Source: a virus
Lineage: Duplodnaviria; Heunggongvirae; Uroviricota; Caudoviricetes
Length of the DNA stretch: 6,159 bases
IMG/VR virus record: IMGVR_UViG_2529293142_000024
Reading direction: 5' to 3' (one strand)
This document shows, one piece after another, positions 85-6,159 of this stretch. The notes under the pieces were generated by a model that was given only the letters and a program-made list of their open reading frames with translations, searched no databases and was not told the origin of the DNA. Each line of letters opens with the position of its first letter. The stretch's first letter is position 1. The translations under genes were made by a program, and so were the position numbers.

Positions 85-276
85 ATGTTCGCGCTGGTAC
101 TTTTTGTTTGCTACCTGGATGGCGGTTGTGAAGATATTGTTGTGGATGTCTACAACACGGAACAGCAGTGTCTTTATTCTATGAGCGATCAACGGATCCG
201 CCATGGCGGTTGTTTTCCGATTGAGGATTTTATAGATGGTTTCTGGCGACCAGCACAGGAGTATGGTGATTTTTAA
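85..276 (+). CDS. yebW: small uncharacterized protein, YebW-like (63 aa)
   Basis: Frame-1 ORF ends at TAA 274-276. Internal ATG at 85 is preceded by GGGGA (76-80) as a Shine-Dalgarno; product is MFALVLFVCYLDGGCEDIVV...GDF. The ATG at nt 1 coincides with the window edge and has no visible RBS. Size and position convergent to pphA match the E. coli yebV-yebW-pphA order as I recall it. Confidence 0.5.
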   Translation: MFALVLFVCYLDGGCEDIVVDVYNTEQQCLYSMSDQRIRHGGCFPIEDFIDGFWRPAQEYGDF

Positions 277-933
277 TTATTGCAATTGCACAAGAGTCAG
301 TTCGCCCCCAAAGACAGCACCGGTATCAATATAATGCAGGTTGCCAATATCCACGCGATGTCGCAACGGTGTATGACCAAACCAGAAATGATCAGCACCT
401 GTAATTCCCTGCCCTTTTTGGCGTTCACCTAATCGCGAGCGGCTCCACAAGACCTGATGCAAATCAACGTCCTTTTGCCATTCATAAACATCATCTGGAT
501 AATCGGCATGAGCAATAACATGTTTGCCGGTACGACTGTGTACTTCAAGAATAAAGGGCAAATGCTGACATTTTTCCAGCGCCGTTTTCGCTTGTTTCTG
601 TTGATTATCTGCCAGCGCAATAAACCAGTCGCCGCCATTCATCAACCACAAAGACATCTGCTGGGATGCCAGCGCATCCATCGCCATCTGTTCATGATTG
701 CCTCTTACCGCACGAACCCAATGTTGTTCCAGTAACTGCAGGCAACGTAAACTTTGCGGCCCACGATCGATAACGTCTCCCACTGAGATAAGTAAATCTC
801 GCCACGGATCAAAACCACAATGCCATAATTTGCGGCGCAACTGCTCAAGACAACCGTGTATATCGCCAGAAAGCCAGATATGTCGCCATTGATGACCCGC
901 AATTCTCTGATAAACGGGCGCAGGCTGTTTCAT
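277..933 (-). CDS. pphA: serine/threonine protein phosphatase 1 (PrpA), calcineurin-like metallophosphatase
   Basis: Minus-strand ORF 277-936 starts at TTG in the ORF track; the ATG at 933-931 with a GGGAGG Shine-Dalgarno (complement of 943-948) gives 218 aa. Metallophosphatase motifs are visible: GDIHG, GDVIDRG, GNHE. The sequence matches my memory of E. coli PrpA almost residue for residue. Stop abuts the yebW stop (TAATTA at 274-279). Confidence 0.85.
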   Translation of the reverse strand: MKQPAPVYQRIAGHQWRHIWLSGDIHGCLEQLRRKLWHCGFDPWRDLLISVGDVIDRGPQSLRCLQLLEQHWVRAVRGNHEQMAMDALASQQMSLWLMNGGDWFIALADNQQKQAKTALEKCQHLPFILEVHSRTGKHVIAHADYPDDVYEWQKDVDLHQVLWSRSRLGERQKGQGITGADHFWFGHTPLRHRVDIGNLHYIDTGAVFGGELTLVQLQ

Positions 934-1064
934 CAATATTTTCCTCCCGCGCTAAAGATCACATAATCTTAACAAGAATGTTAAAAAACGCTGGACTCAG
1001 ACAGTAGAGTGTGTGTTATGGTTGACTATAAAGTCAGCGAAGGAAATGCTTCTGGCTTTTAACA

Positions 1065-1100
1065 GATAAAAAGAGACCGAACACGATTCCTGTTTTCGTC
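1065..1100 (-). ncRNA. SdsR/RyeB-like sRNA 3' terminator fragment (hairpin plus U5); the 5' body of the sRNA is not present adjacent to it
   Basis: Minus-strand RNA reads GACGAAAACAGGAAUCGUGUUCGGUCUCUUUUUAUC. This is near-identical to the 3' end of enterobacterial SdsR as I remember it (...GACCGAAUACAGGAAUCGUAUUCGGUCUCUUUUU). The hairpin is imperfect here (one bulge, one mismatch). Location upstream of pphA matches the K-12 pphA-sdsR/ryeA-yebY arrangement. Sequence 5' of it on the same strand (1101-1260) is 25% GC and unlike SdsR. Confidence 0.35.
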
Positions 1101-1470
1101 AACAAACAACAAAATCTTTTAGAATTAATGTGTTAAATAAATTTATGCTCATCTTTTAATCTCTAACACGTACTATTACATATTAATACATTCAATTAGT
1201 TACCATTTTTTTCGAGTTTTTTAGAGAAATTTTCGGGAATATTTCAGGTCAATCCATGCATACACAAGCAATTCCTGTATTGAATAATTCCGTAGCAATT
1301 ATGTAAAATCATCTCCGGCTGATTTTCATTCAAACTCGCGCTATCGAATAGCACAAAGCCTTGCAATCCAGTGCAAAGCTTTGTGTGTATGAGTTTTTTC
1401 TCACATCACCAGGCAATCATCAAACTCCGTATTCCTGGCGTCATTAATTATGTAAGTGATCACCACGAAT

Positions 1471-1498
1471 ATAGCCAGTGCAGAATAGCCAGTGCAGA
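1471..1498. repeat. perfect tandem duplication of a 14-bp unit (ATAGCCAGTGCAGA x2)
   Basis: Read directly: atagccagtgcaga at 1471-1484 and again at 1485-1498. Function unknown. Confidence 0.9.
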
Positions 1499-1730
1499 AC
1501 TGTAACCATCATCATCTTCTGGCAGCGCTTCCCTTCTCCCGTTATCCAGATTAACCGGGTGGTGCTGAGGATGAGTCCGATATCGCTTGATCCTGAATTC
1601 CACATCTATAGCAAAGCGGAAGGATGTCTCAATGTCGTGGACACACAGTGTTACAGCCACAAATCTATAGCCTAAGAAAGGTTTATTTTGTAATTAAAGA
1701 AGATTTTAAAAACCAGATTACTCATTCATA

Positions 1731-1801: not shown

Positions 1802-2945
1802 ATGCTTCGCCACTTAACAGGACTCAGATTTATAGCTGCATTAATGGTTTATTTATGCCATTTAAATACAGACTATTTTGGTGTTTTTGTAAAAGAAATG
1901 TTTTCTCAGGGATTTATTGGCGTTTCCTTTTTCTTTATTTTATCTGGCTTCATTCTTTCATATTCATATGAAGACAAGCTAAAAAATGAAGTAACAAGTA
2001 AAAGACAGTTTATTCTTTTAAGATTGGCAAGAATTGTTCCAATGCATCTATTATTAGCCATGCCATTTATTTTACTAACCATTCACTTAAAGAACTTTGA
2101 TTTTTCAAAAACCTTAACAAATATTTTATTAATGCAAAGTTGGATACCAAAGGAGGATTACTACTTCTCATTAAATGGTGTATCATGGTCTTTGTCTGAT
2201 GAGCTGTTTTTTTATTTAATGTTTATTCCGTTGATTTATACATCAATTACAAAGAAAGTAATCACTGCAATATCAATTATAACTCTACTATTAACTATAT
2301 ATTTTTTAAAAATATACAAACAGAAGAACTTAATCACTGGTTATATTATATATTCCCAGTAAGCCGCTTGGTAGAATTTATTTGCGGCATGATTATTTAC
2401 GCTTGCTGGAAAAACAGCCGACAGCCGACAGCCGACAGCCGACAGCCGACAGCCGACAGCCGACAGCCGACAGCCGACAGCCGACAGCCGACAGCCGACA
2501 GCCGACAGCCGACAGCCGACAGCCGACAGCCGACAGCCGACAGCCGACAGCCGACAGCCGACAGCCTTTTGTTTTTAATTTCACTATTACCTCTGCTAAT
2601 AGCTATATATTATAGCAACAACATAAATAATAGTCTACGTTATTCGTTATATTATTTACTCCCCATGGTAATATTCTTTACTTCATGCATCTATCTAAGA
2701 AATGGAGTCATTCATACTATCCTCAGTTCAAAAACCCTAGAGCTATTAGGGAAATCATCATTTATTTTTATTTAATTCATCAACCCATTATATTATTTTG
2801 CTTTAAAATCTTTGGACATAACCCCGGACCACTCTATTTAATAGCGCTCCTTGTTATAATAACCATAGTCTCAATCATACTTTATAAATTAGTTGAGGAG
2901 CCTTTAGAGCTGATGCTAAGAAAACGAATTTTAGCAGTAAAATAA
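1802..2945 (+). pseudogene. acyltransferase family 3 (O-antigen/LPS O-acetyltransferase-like) integral membrane protein gene; frame-disrupted as sequenced, carrying an in-frame (CAGCCGA)21 tract
   Basis: Three consecutive ORF fragments in frames 2, 1 and 0 (1772-2362, 2368-2775, 2685-2945) together read as one AT3 protein of about 380 aa. Family hallmarks: N-terminus MLRHLTGLRFIAALMVYLCHL, motif VSWSLSDELFFY, R-x-VEFICGMIIYA, C-terminal GKSSFIF/YLIHQPII and LVEEP. ATG at 1802 has a good Shine-Dalgarno; the ORF-track start at 1772 is TTG. Frame breaks map to the T6A5 run (2302-2312) and the T5 run (2764-2768); each is repaired by +1 nt. About 28% GC against about 45-50% in flanking genes. Confidence 0.7.
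2415..2566 (+). repeat. simple-sequence repeat: 21 perfect copies of heptanucleotide CAGCCGA plus a partial copy (CAGCC), inside the acyltransferase coding region
   Basis: Counted directly: units start at 2415 + 7k for k = 0..20, then cagcc at 2562-2566. In the gene frame the tract encodes (SRQPTAD)x7. The tract is 71% GC. Confidence 0.97.
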
Positions 2946-2947
2946 AT

Positions 2948-2971
2948 AAAACCGCGCTATTGCGCGGTTTT
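2948..2971. terminator. bidirectional intrinsic terminator between the acyltransferase (+) and the phage tail operon (-)
   Basis: AAAACCGCGC (2948-2957), loop TATT, GCGCGGTTTT (2962-2971): a 10-bp stem with 6 GC pairs, flanked by A/T runs so a U-tract follows on either strand. It lies 3 bp after the acyltransferase stop (2943-2945) and overlaps the last codons and stop (2959-2957) of the minus-strand small ORF. Confidence 0.55.
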
Positions 2972-3136
2972 ATCTTCAGGCTTGATGAATTTTTTACCGT
3001 CATATGACCAGCCAATACCAACATCTCCAACACATTTAACTATATCCGCTTTTTCTGTCTTAAACTCTGACTTACCATCCCATACAACAAGATTTGTAAC
3101 GACACCATTTTGTACGACTGCATAAATATCGCTCAT
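2957..3136 (-). CDS. small phage protein (59 aa), function unknown; possibly a short or truncated tail-fibre accessory/assembly-like protein
   Basis: ATG at 3136-3134 overlaps the tail-fibre stop (TAATG). GGGAG Shine-Dalgarno at 3149-3145 with an 8-nt spacer. Product MSDIYAVVQNGVVTNLVVWDGKSEF...KTAQ. The ORF track extends it to a GTG at 3151. No family recognised with confidence. Confidence 0.45.
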   Translation of the reverse strand: MSDIYAVVQNGVVTNLVVWDGKSEFKTEKADIVKCVGDVGIGWSYDGKKFIKPEDKTAQ

Positions 3137-3729
3137 TACTGATACTCCCACACAAGAATATATCCCTGATTTCCATTATTTCCTGTCGCTGGGCCTGATG
3201 ACGCCTTATTGTATTTACCTGTCCCGCCAATACCGTATGTCCCAAGCATAGTAGTGGTTATACTTTCAACGCCAATCGCCTGATCATCACCAAGTCCAAG
3301 TGCCCCACATAAATTTGATCGTGAAACTGAATGGAACAGAATCCCTTGCCCTGTAGGAATTGGTGCTTCTGTTGCACTTCCCCCTGAAAATGGAGGTACC
3401 TGCTGAACTTGAGTTGATCCCCTTCCTCCCGGGCATACAAGCAAATCACCAAAGCTTGTATTCCCGCCGTCACCTCCAGAGCCTCCTGGTCCTGTTCCTG
3501 CTACACCACCGCTTCCAATAGTTACTTGCACGGATTCAGGTATAGACTGATAAAAAAATGCTTTAGCATATGCCCCGTTGGAACCGGCAGCACTTACACC
3601 ACAGTTATTTGAGGCTGTTGCTGATAAATTGCCACTGGCACCACCACCGCCAACGGCTTCCACTATAATTTTCGTTACACCAGGTGATTTGTGATAAGTC
3701 CCAGATGATCCAAATACCTGAACCCCCAA
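3136..3729 (-). CDS. tail fibre protein, glycine-rich C-terminal segment (probably the distal part of one fibre gene interrupted at 3782-3788)
   Basis: ORF with a TTG start and no credible Shine-Dalgarno. Gly-rich stretches (VEAVGGGGASG, GSGGVAGTGPGGSGGDGGNT) typical of phage fibre distal domains. Its frame is open upstream to the TAA at 3789-3787, directly after the A7 run of the upstream ORF. Confidence 0.6.
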   Translation of the reverse strand: MGVQVFGSSGTYHKSPGVTKIIVEAVGGGGASGNLSATASNNCGVSAAGSNGAYAKAFFYQSIPESVQVTIGSGGVAGTGPGGSGGDGGNTSFGDLLVCPGGRGSTQVQQVPPFSGGSATEAPIPTGQGILFHSVSRSNLCGALGLGDDQAIGVESITTTMLGTYGIGGTGKYNKASSGPATGNNGNQGYILVWEYQ

Positions 3730-3755
3730 AAGCCTTCCTGTTCCATCACCAAGTG

Positions 3756-4283
3756 TTAAATATTGTAGAGTTTCCGATACGTTTTTTTACTTAAAATTTC
3801 CCTACCATTTTGAGTCAGCACTGTCATATCCATTGTTCCAGCACCTGTAAAAAATGCCAGCCCATCCGGTATTCCTGTTAAGCTCGACAATGATGTCAGA
3901 TTATCATTTTTATCCTGTTTATCATTCAGAATGTCTGTCATTCCCAGGTTTTCGAGAGCCGTTTGCACAGTGCCATCCGATTTGATATCGCCAAACGGAT
4001 TCTTGCGGCTCAGGTATTCAACAGCAAACCCCGATCCCAGCAATTCAACAAAACCGGGCAGATCACCATTATCAAGCACATCCCGTTGCGTTTTGTCACT
4101 TACAAACTGGGCCAGAGCTGCAGCAATAAAGCTGGCCTGCCGAATAACCTTATTGACTTGCGCACTGGATGCTTTCCCTGCTGTAAATCCGGATAAAAGC
4201 GCAGGCAACGCTTCCCATTCCTCCTGCGACATAACATTGGCATTCCGATCAGTTGCAAACGCTTTAAAGTCATTTTTCGCCAT
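3756..4283 (-). CDS. tail fibre protein, N-terminal (baseplate-proximal) segment
   Basis: Product [33 protein letters not shown]... resembles the conserved N-termini of P2/Mu-type side tail fibres. ATG at 4283-4281 overlaps the stop of the upstream gene (TGATG), with GGGAG at 4298-4294. The ORF track's alternative ATG at 4301 has no usable spacer. Ends at TAA 3758-3756, 10 codons after an A7 run. Confidence 0.65.
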
Positions 4284-4963
4284 CAGAGTAATACTCCCCA
4301 TGCCCCTACATCAAAACCACTGATGAATTCGTTATCCATATCAAAACCAAAAAATTTTGAACCTTCCGATGGAGTTTCCACCGAAGGTGTTTCAATGCCA
4401 CCCGCCCAAACCCCGGCGGCTTTTACTGTGAGATATCCCTGTTTAATTGCAGCAATTAACTCACGCGATACATCTGAAATATCAGTATCAGGAAAGAGCC
4501 AGACCGATATCGTCATGTCCTGGTTATCGACTATCTGCATTCGCAGTCCGGATCCTGCTGTCGCCGCGTCAAGAATTGCTGGAAGCGAATCATTCCGTCC
4601 GTCCCAGTTATTAATCGCAATCTTCGCTTTAAGGATGACACGATAAGTTTCATCGCTGAGGTACATGTATCCGGAATCAGGATCGTATGGCCCCTGCCAT
4701 ACACCCTGATCATATCCAAGCCCGTCGGTATCCCAGCTGAAATAGACACCTGAGATAGGCTGGCTGACAACACGGCTACGTCCGATCCACAATCCAAGAA
4801 TGTCAAGTTGCACACCAACCGCAGAGTCAATATCAAATGCAGTAATCAGCCCTCTGGTGGCAGCCGCAACATCAATAAGCGGCCGGGTCATCAGATCAAC
4901 ATGTGCAAGAAATTTAGGTTTGGTGGCGTGGTAGTTCGTGATCAGTTCGGTGTATTTGCTCAT
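4283..4963 (-). CDS. phage baseplate/tail protein, P2 gpI / Mu gp48-like by position (226 aa)
   Basis: ATG at 4963-4961 overlaps the stop of the J-like gene (ATGA). Sits between the baseplate J-like gene and the tail fibre, as gpI does in P2-type, Mu-type and R-pyocin-type tail modules. Assignment is mainly positional; no motif recognised with certainty. Confidence 0.5.
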
Positions 4964-6159
4964 GACTCCACCGTTATAACGATATTTTCCGGTGTACAGG
5001 ACGCAGATTCGTTGTATCTGATATCAATGTTTGATGACGACAAAGCCCCCGGGGATTTCCCAATCGTCAGTTCCTGAATATCGTAATAGCGTGCATTCCC
5101 GCCACTCACCACGCCAAGATTCGCCGGTGAGTAAATGCGACTTAAAAGGACCGAATCACCAATCATCAGACTATTGATATAGTCGGAAATAGCCTGCTGG
5201 ATCTGCTGCCCTATCTGTGAGGTATAACCCGTAAAAACTTTTAATTTAATCCGGGCATAAACAGGTACATCACTGGAACGCGAGAATTTGATTACATGGG
5301 GATTGCCGTATTTATCCGGAACCGTAACGGATGTTGTACCGTGAGTGGCTGTCCCCTGGCCTTTATTCCCTCTGATAGCCTGAGCAATATCCGTCACATC
5401 ACCGCCATCCACAATTACAGCAACAGAGTGTGGCGGTAACCCGTTACCGTCCTCCGAACCAGTATCGTTTTCATAGAGTTTGTGGCGGGTTACACCGGTA
5501 ACATTAGAAACAGCACCATCCAGTGCTTCAAATGGGGTTATTGATGGCAACGCAACACTTTGCGACTGGCGGATACGTAACTCAGCATCAGTTTCTGCCG
5601 GAGAGCCAACAGTAGCCGCAGCAGGATTAGTTACCGAAACCCAGCCACGGGTTGGCGTATTAATTTCAGTGATAGTTCCAGCCAGCGCCGCCACTGCACC
5701 ACTGACGGAACATGTTGCGGTCGCCATCACTGTACCATCCACGCCGACCACCACTGAAGCAGGCAAACGCCATATCACATTATTACTGTCTTTCACGCTG
5801 CCATTAATGATGGTTGTTCCGGCAGTTCCTGTAAGAAGCAAATCAACCGTAGAGTTCGTCGCGCCTTTACGTGAAATACCATTTATTTTCACGTTACTGG
5901 TCAGTGCAGCCCCATAGCCGGTTGCCGGTGAAAAACAGTTGTAGACAGTTATCGCCATATTATTAGCATCATGAATCGCCAGCGCCATCAGAGCCACCAT
6001 CTGGCCGTCTTTGCTGTCCGGTTCGAGGTAGGCATCACTGCCATAAATCTGCTGAAAATAGCTAATCAGGGTGCTGAGTATCGTCTGATAATCAGGCGCA
6101 CTGATCCCCTCCGCGGTTACCTTTGCAGATAAACCGAGAGAATCAAGGTTCAGAGCCAT
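4960..6159 (-). CDS. phage baseplate J-like protein (baseplate wedge); start codon lies at the window edge, so the gene may extend beyond it
   Basis: 399-codon ORF. Contains the AETDAELRIRQ motif and overall resemblance to Baseplate_J-family proteins of contractile-tail phages. Gene order J, I-like, fibre. Confidence 0.6.
   Translation of the reverse strand: MALNLDSLGLSAKVTAEGISAPDYQTILSTLISYFQQIYGSDAYLEPDSKDGQMVALMALAIHDANNMAITVYNCFSPATGYGAALTSNVKINGISRKGATNSTVDLLLTGTAGTTIINGSVKDSNNVIWRLPASVVVGVDGTVMATATCSVSGAVAALAGTITEINTPTRGWVSVTNPAAATVGSPAETDAELRIRQSQSVALPSITPFEALDGAVSNVTGVTRHKLYENDTGSEDGNGLPPHSVAVIVDGGDVTDIAQAIRGNKGQGTATHGTTSVTVPDKYGNPHVIKFSRSSDVPVYARIKLKVFTGYTSQIGQQIQQAISDYINSLMIGDSVLLSRIYSPANLGVVSGGNARYYDIQELTIGKSPGALSSSNIDIRYNESASCTPENIVITVES

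Follow-up and report, generated by a model that had tools for sequence, protein, structure and literature searches.

Integration into the 3' end of a structured-RNA gene, with the phage providing the replacement end, is the classical pattern of tRNA and tmRNA genes. It has been described for tRNA, tmRNA and sRNA genes, the gene being restored upon insertion, as for ryeE/CP4-44 and ssrA (Williams 2002, as cited in PMC3603311). The sdsR locus is itself mentioned as a phage attachment site (PMC3333887), and ryeB, the other name of sdsR, figures among the known phage targets in Salmonella (Bobay et al. 2013). The closest known case is that of PhiW104 in Salmonella enterica DT104 (Balbontin et al. 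2008, J Bacteriol 190:4075): its attachment site, according to the summary given in PMC7380047, falls in the final 23 bp of ryeB, inside ryeA. From the same summary, the 5' part of ryeA is changed in PhiW104 lysogens, with less ryeA transcription and more ryeB (PMC7380047). Integration into the ryeB terminator is already published for Salmonella (2008), and the E. coli case analysed here is a further instance. An explicit account of integration at the E. coli sdsR site was not found in a targeted literature search, which does not prove that none exists.

The window, i.e. the whole 6,159-nt stretch of DNA analysed (IMG/VR record IMGVR_UViG_2529293142_000024), starts with a host part having the gene order of the K-12 core genome, namely yebW, pphA and the ryeA promoter. 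Its host flanks are of the E. coli or Shigella type, with 99% identity to K-12, and positions 930-1098 align to the K-12 pphA-sdsR interval with 99.4% identity (E 6e-80). The minus strand of 1068-1093 is the exact last 26 nt of K-12 SdsR (ACAGGAATCGTGTTCGGTCTCTTTTT), with no mismatch and as a single copy in the window, and none of 200 dinucleotide-preserving shuffles gave a match, two mismatches being permitted. A preliminary description of this DNA had recognised the SdsR terminator on the minus strand, in a 33-nt string that is the exact reverse complement of 1068-1100, and had placed it at the sdsR/ryeA site of K-12, between pphA and yebY. Synteny and the identity over 930-1098 bear out the location, and the exact 26-nt match bears out the terminator. 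The features of the window are listed in Table 1.

Table 1. Host, junction and prophage features along the window (position 1 is its first letter; a dot marks features to which no strand is assigned).
Feature	Position	Strand	Basis
yebW, host core gene	85-276	+	K-12 annotation (L001 1656-1847); 99% identity
pphA, serine/threonine phosphatase 1, host core gene	277-933	-	K-12 annotation; Pfam Metallophos, E 9.6e-15
ryeA/sraC sigma-70 promoter, -10 box TATGGT (pphA side of the junction)	1017-1022	+	Identical to K-12
RyeA 5' fragment, about the first 64 nt of ~270, continuing into phage DNA	1030-1093	+	Start deduced from the -10 box and the RyeA length
SdsR 3'-terminal fragment	1068-1093	-	Exact 26-nt match; approximately Rfam SdsR model positions 75-100 in K-12
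SdsR fragment, U-tract	1068-1072	-	
SdsR fragment, stem 3' arm	1073-1084	-	
SdsR fragment, 7-nt loop	1085-1091	-	
SdsR fragment, 2 nt of the 5' arm		-	
Crossover segment ACGATTCCTGT, common to attB and attP	1083-1093	.	Allele pattern at 1073, 1082 and 1094
Conserved phage attP arm, tail/cargo side (P arm by lambda convention), 26% GC, 255 bp	1094-1348	.	84% identity to PP818812.1
Two tandem AWWTTTCRGG motifs (AATTTTCGGG, ATATTTCAGG), candidate arm-type Int-binding sites	1228-1237, 1239-1248	+	
S24-peptidase/LexA-type repressor gene remnant, start of the acyltransferase cargo module	1401-1612	-	Frameshifted partial CDS in E41 (L006 6105-6316) and 300709
Acyl_transf_3 acyltransferase cargo gene, disrupted	1802-2945	+	Aligned with the intact copy (1020 nt) in E41 and 300709
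Tail-fibre gene, split	3136-4301	-	ORFs; Gly_rich_2 domain
DUF2612 baseplate/tail protein	4283-4963	-	Pfam PF11041, E 9e-47
Baseplate J/gp47-family protein	4960-6159	-	Pfam PF04865, E 5.9e-15; annotation in relatives

In K-12, the bases equivalent to the fragment belong both to the SdsR 3' end (RF00111, 114.4 bits) and to the 5' part of RyeA (RF00101, 175 bits). In the window, RF00111 scores 20.4 bits (E 4.1, 1068-1146, minus strand), below its gathering threshold of 38, and RF00101 scores 25.4 bits (E 0.12, 1064-1184, plus strand), below its gathering threshold of 37; both alignments are confined to the hairpin part, which for RyeA is the first hairpin. Such sub-threshold scores are expected, because the fragment is only 26 nt long. 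The covariance-model score was judged unsuitable for a fragment of this size, and the identification rests on synteny and exact identity. The preliminary description would have been given up in the absence of a significant hit to the SdsR and RyeA models; formally, both models stay below threshold, and it is synteny and exact identity that decide otherwise. What the window shares identically with K-12 consists of the last 26 nt of SdsR, the ryeA promoter and about the first 64 nt of RyeA, whereas SdsR lacks its promoter, its seed region, its Hfq-binding body and its terminator 5' arm, and RyeA its body and terminator. Neither yebY nor the sdsR body was found in the window, where homology to K-12 stops at 1093/1098. 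The fragment at 1068-1093 is orthologous to the SdsR 3' end, but it is not an sRNA gene.

At the end of the homology, identity to K-12 is perfect through 1093; position 1094 is a T (A in K-12), TTCG at 1095-1098 is common to both and the sequences are unrelated beyond. In a four-way alignment, E. coli strains 300709 and VL40 resemble the window, not K-12, past this breakpoint, which falls within the terminator hairpin. The few substitutions in the stem reported in the preliminary description are thus real as differences from K-12, but they are not scattered: all are confined to the hairpin's 5' arm, where phage DNA now stands in place of the original sequence. Rfam matches below the gathering scores would also agree with a pphA-yebY region of the ordinary kind, uninterrupted and carrying only a few point changes in its SdsR terminator, or with a fortuitous likeness to it. 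Both can be dismissed, since the K-12 alignment breaks off abruptly at 1093/1098, the 250 bp that follow correspond to a phage attP arm and not to the sdsR body, phage genes come next with yebY missing, and the 26-nt match is exact and was never reproduced by shuffling. Concerning the DNA after the fragment, described previously as having 25% GC, a value of 26.5% was obtained over 1101-1300.

The consequence for the hairpin was assessed by folding. The 51-nt minus-strand RNA of the window has a minimum free energy of -5.8 kcal/mol (z +0.39), and 124 of 200 shuffles fold equally well or better, vs. -15.8 kcal/mol (z -3.26) for the native SdsR terminator of K-12. The stable Rho-independent hairpin followed by a U-tract, which characterises an SdsR gene, is not formed by the window fragment, and a consensus scan of 930-1810 found no terminator-like site. 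As predicted by these models, the window fragment no longer folds as a terminator and is a dead 26-nt terminator half. The stem had been called weakened: a change in the hairpin was rightly noticed, its degree was underestimated, as the predicted structure is abolished. It could be argued that the remnant still works, either as a weak terminator or insulator between late prophage transcription and pphA, or as part of a short chimeric antisense RNA, given the intact ryeA promoter, followed by ~64 intact nt of RyeA, the U-tract of the minus strand and the strong conservation of the junction sequence among lysogens. Against this stand a hairpin folding no better than shuffled sequence and the lack of a detected terminator-like site, and the conservation is accounted for by recent common descent and by the needs of Int binding at the att site. 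A working remnant of either kind is very improbable; in the second, the chimeric RNA made from the ryeA promoter and the remnant would pair with the restored SdsR 3' end.

The dead terminator half is directly followed by the arm at 1094-1348, which was found in 46 fetched loci with a median identity of 97%, homology to the window stopping at 1348 in all of them. One deposited phage genome matches this arm, at 84% identity: PP818812.1, labelled Actinobacillus phage vB_Apl-pPE4, in which the arm directly adjoins the integrase gene in an uninterrupted attP (int ... ACAATTAAAAAAAGACCGAATACGATTCCTGT TTTCGTCAACAAAC ...). Uninterrupted attP sites are present in PP818812.1, in the IMG/VR contigs L021, L024, L028 and L031, and in OK490361. 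In five loci, phage sequence, not host, lies to the left of the core, with three distinct variants of the int-side arm; from their sequences, these loci look like free attP sites. The same attP core, again adjoining int, occurs in Salmonella phage ZC-S1_prp, of which the Int is 73% identical to the E. coli one. As for the empty attB, it is represented by K-12 and, judging from junction counts, by the other ~5,200 complete E. coli genomes.

Over the 32 positions equivalent to window 1067-1098, attB (K-12) and attP are equal at 29. The three differences are located at the equivalents of 1073, 1082 and 1094, where free attP has A, T and T, respectively. In the window, 1073 (G) and 1082 (C) are of host type and 1094 (T) is of phage type. 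The int-side junction of the O55:H7 strain DEC5E shows the reciprocal pattern: A and T, as in the phage, at the equivalents of 1073 and 1082, and the host A at that of 1094. Strand exchange within ACGATTCCTGT (1083-1093) is indicated by this reciprocal distribution of the three polymorphic positions, and the crossover can be placed, as far as the alleles tell, to within 11 bp. It corresponds to SdsR model positions ~75-85 of 100, with 26 nt retained. Host homology ending in a short attB/attP core with reciprocal polymorphisms on its flanks is what characterises a junction of site-specific recombination.

By analogy with lambda, several elements of the site can be proposed. The hairpin loop GATTCCT (1085-1091) would be the 7-bp overlap region and the stem arms on either side of it are probably inverted core-type Int sites, a layout that fits the lambda pattern. 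The AWWTTTCRGG motif has only two matches in the whole window, the tandem pair in the arm, and motifs of the same family recur, in tandem, on the int-side arm. An IHF-consensus motif, YAANNNNTTGATW, lies directly beside the core on all three int-side arm variants, and the strict IHF consensus was not found in the arm of the window. The overlap, core-type, arm-type and IHF sites are all putative assignments of this kind. Some 85 bp from the real core, the int-side attP arm (L004 43866-43895, L005 1125-1135) also has part of the core a second time, AAAAAAGACCGGAATACAG; this copy could be left over from an earlier att duplication, or could be a terminator of int.

With high confidence, a temperate phage of the lambda type is integrated in the sdsR terminator, and window 1068-1348 is its junction on the tail/cargo side, attR in lambda terms. 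Where the preliminary description spoke of an island inserted in the small-RNA locus, the insertion stands, and its nature is refined to a lambda-type prophage with a defined attP. Foreign DNA in place of the sRNA body and yebY, followed by the acyltransferase and phage genes, had also been described, in agreement with the alignment, the GC content and the Pfam domains. The fit with the Salmonella ryeA/ryeB hot spot can be made more precise, since foreign DNA is joined here within the last ~23 bp of ryeB, as reported for PhiW104 in the summary of PMC7380047.

The 21-mer spanning the junction was found in 42 IMG/VR contigs, 41 of which are related to the window. Two IMG/VR contigs, L022 and L040, have the same junction with a pphA-side host flank only 80-83% identical to that of the window and with a different sequence upstream of the core; the same phage family therefore has this site as its target in a further enterobacterial species too. 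When one genome per species was scanned, there was a sole match to the junction 21-mer, in a Casimicrobiaceae MAG, which was rejected as a chance match with unrelated flanks; the scan is therefore uninformative on taxonomic spread. Concerning PP818812.1 (L005), its Int is 97.5% identical to the E. coli prophage Int and its attP has a near-copy of the enterobacterial sdsR terminator; its Actinobacillus host label looks doubtful.

The proposed mechanism is as follows. Site-specific recombination by a tyrosine integrase put the phage into the Rho-independent terminator of sdsR (ryeB), which overlaps ryeA (sraC) on the opposite strand. The attP brings a near-copy (29/32 bp) of the 3' half of the sdsR terminator, and strand exchange took place inside ACGATTCCTGT, in and around the 7-nt loop of the hairpin. 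In the int-proximal product, located outside the window, the sdsR body would receive a phage-supplied 3' arm and U-tract, SdsR being kept. In the pphA-proximal product, the one present in the window, the original 3' arm and U-tract are left joined to unrelated phage DNA.

The far end can be followed in related lysogens. DEC5E has a pphA-side junction identical to that of the window and a 42-kb prophage ending in xis and int, beyond which come full-length SdsR (118 bits) and RyeA (179 bits), then yebY. Its SdsR 3' arm and U-tract are phage-derived, GUAUUCGGUCUUUUUUU replacing GUGUUCGGUCUCUUUUU, and the re-formed terminator has a predicted energy of -15.8 kcal/mol. An intact sRNA at the far end of the island, as anticipated in the preliminary description, is thus seen in a related lysogen with an identical junction, adjoining the integrase. 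The sequence mark of such a reconstituted SdsR (~118 bits, between int and yebY) would be GACCGAATAC...GTATTCGGTCTTTTTTT. The Int of the related prophage has a Phage_integrase catalytic domain and a lambda-type Arm-DNA-binding domain (PF09003), is 41% identical to HK022 Int and is encoded next to an excisionase gene.

At the population level, the window-type junction was found in 228 of the 5,426 complete E. coli genomes, and the reciprocal int-side junction likewise in 228 of 5,426. All 5,426 genomes keep at least 80% of sdsR; in 216 of them sdsR is at 95-99% identity, the band expected from the phage-derived terminator variant. From the relatives and these population counts, which give strong support, we infer that sdsR is reconstituted in the window's own genome, its far end lying outside the window.

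The same att junction could also belong to a decayed remnant in which the far end has been deleted or rearranged, sdsR not being reconstituted and the sRNA being lost. This would fit with the absence of the window arrangement from the 5,426 complete E. coli genomes and the 42 viral contigs, with the replaced cargo region and the frameshifts in prophage genes, and with the partly degraded version present in strain 300709. Retention of at least 80% of sdsR in every complete genome, the equal counts of the two junction types and the otherwise intact structural genes downstream in the window argue against it, and loss of the sRNA is considered highly unlikely compared with its reconstitution.

As for the prophage content, the cargo beyond 1348 differs among related loci: DEC5E and 300709 have a pinE invertase with a tail-fibre shufflon and VL40 a T3SS effector gene, ipaH3 (cargo coordinates of relatives: L003 6420-8461; L004 2190-2793), and the window has the S24-repressor remnant and the acyltransferase. 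Base 1348 is, on these alignments, seen as a cargo-exchange point beside the att site. The exact mosaic, in which the junction arm is joined directly to the acyltransferase module, was found in none of the 5,426 complete genomes (at least 80% window coverage) and in none of the 42 IMG/VR contigs. Compared with three or more relatives, 1-nt homopolymer deletions at ~2313 and ~2766 break the acyltransferase gene, the intact copy of which matches Pfam PF01757 (E 1.4e-30), and a 1-nt deletion in the homopolymer 3781-3787 splits the tail-fibre gene into ORFs 3756-4301 and 3136-3729 (vs. three relatives). These three deletions are either real prophage decay or sequencing errors of the source assembly. 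The cargo replacement beyond 1348 and the three 1-nt frameshifts are signs that the prophage has decayed or been rearranged, and it may be defective.

Within the acyltransferase gene, a perfect heptanucleotide array, ACAGCCG x 21.9, occupies 2414-2566. At this site, the intact genes of E41 and 300709 have 26 nt only (ACAGCCG ACAGCAG ACAGTCG ACAGC), and IMG/VR contig L045, in which it is the ACAGTCG unit that is expanded, has 82 nt. The differences in array length amount to 126 nt (in frame) and 56 nt (out of frame). The array looks like a slipped-strand contingency locus, which could switch the surface-modifying acyltransferase on and off.

Two other repeats or hairpins were observed in this part of the window. 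A perfect 14-nt tandem duplication, ATAGCCAGTGCAGA x 2.1, is present at 1471-1499, within the remnant of the S24-peptidase gene. At 2948-2971, between the acyltransferase gene and a convergent small ORF, lies the GC-rich hairpin of a bidirectional terminator, AAAACCGCGC-TATT-GCGCGGTTTT. The sub-threshold Rfam matches obtained at 2850-3030 (Leu_leader, RsmY, MicC, rimP and AbsR28) align only to this hairpin and were rejected as spurious.

The locus can now be set beside the known systems. With PhiW104, as summarised in PMC7380047, it has in common the target gene and the position, as well as an sRNA that is kept and a ryeA 5' part that is replaced in lysogens; the prophage analysed here differs in its E. 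coli- or Shigella-type host and in being a mosaic with baseplate J/DUF2612 tail genes and an acyltransferase module. With the lambda/HK022 type it shares, as seen in the relatives, a tyrosine integrase with an arm-binding domain and an xis gene adjoining int, and its attP core is set between arms with repeated motifs, candidate Int sites, and a putative IHF site of consensus sequence; its Int is just 41% identical to that of HK022. The crossover in a hairpin loop between symmetric stem sequences and the phage-supplied 3' end are as in other integrations into RNA-gene 3' ends, from which the present case differs in that the target is a bidirectional sRNA locus. Since this is so, restoring SdsR parts both RyeA and the read-through gene pphA from their promoters.

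For RyeA, ~270 nt long (PMC6610125; K-12 L001 2601-2870), the mapped sigma-70 -10 box, TATGGT, is present in the window; to mutate the promoter, Choi et al. 2019 (PMC6610125) used primers that replace exactly this hexamer. Fröhlich et al. mention an alternative ryeA -10 box and start ~35 nt downstream (PMC3333887). Even this alternative start lies before the crossover, towards pphA, so that the window retains the host promoter together with ~64 nt (or fewer) of the RyeA 5' end. The stranded promoter would, from its orientation, point into the prophage arm. No terminator is predicted between it (~1017-1030) and the acyltransferase gene 770 nt downstream. At the far end, a promoter-like TTTACA-16-TACAAT is found in phage DNA ahead of the RyeA body of DEC5E (consensus match only), and far-end RyeA would have to depend on a phage-borne promoter. 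Such a re-promotion of RyeA agrees with what is reported for PhiW104 in Salmonella in the summary of PMC7380047.

Concerning pphA, Choi et al. found it to be transcribed mainly from the sigma-S sdsR promoter, via read-through of the sdsR terminator; its older heat-shock promoter is still further upstream than the sdsR promoter (PMC6610125). No promoter-like site was found on the pphA strand in 930-1810. Extrapolating from the K-12 and Salmonella experiments, pphA would be separated from the sdsR promoter by the whole prophage. As both promoters lie a whole prophage away in a lysogen, pphA is probably uncoupled from its normal control.

A broader proposition, which is rather unlikely as a whole, is that lysogeny rewires this host module in ~4% of E. 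coli: pphA would lose both promoters, RyeA would be re-promoted and the SdsR terminator would be phage-made, with a longer U-tract; in the window, the ryeA promoter would in addition fire into the arm and might contribute to expressing the acyltransferase gene, itself switchable through the heptanucleotide repeat.

In terms of annotation, the 26-nt fragment is not to be called sdsR, the real sdsR of such strains being ~40 kb away with a phage-derived terminator. The locus provides a clean, fully resolved example of a temperate phage taking an sRNA terminator hairpin as attB and replacing the displaced 3' end, little of which is new. It also shows that the ryeA/ryeB hot spot of Salmonella serves phages in E. 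coli as well, at a frequency measured here as 228 of the 5,426 complete genomes. Because the target is a bidirectional sRNA pair followed by a gene transcribed through read-through, lysogeny should disconnect pphA from sigma-S control and shift the balance of RyeA to SdsR.
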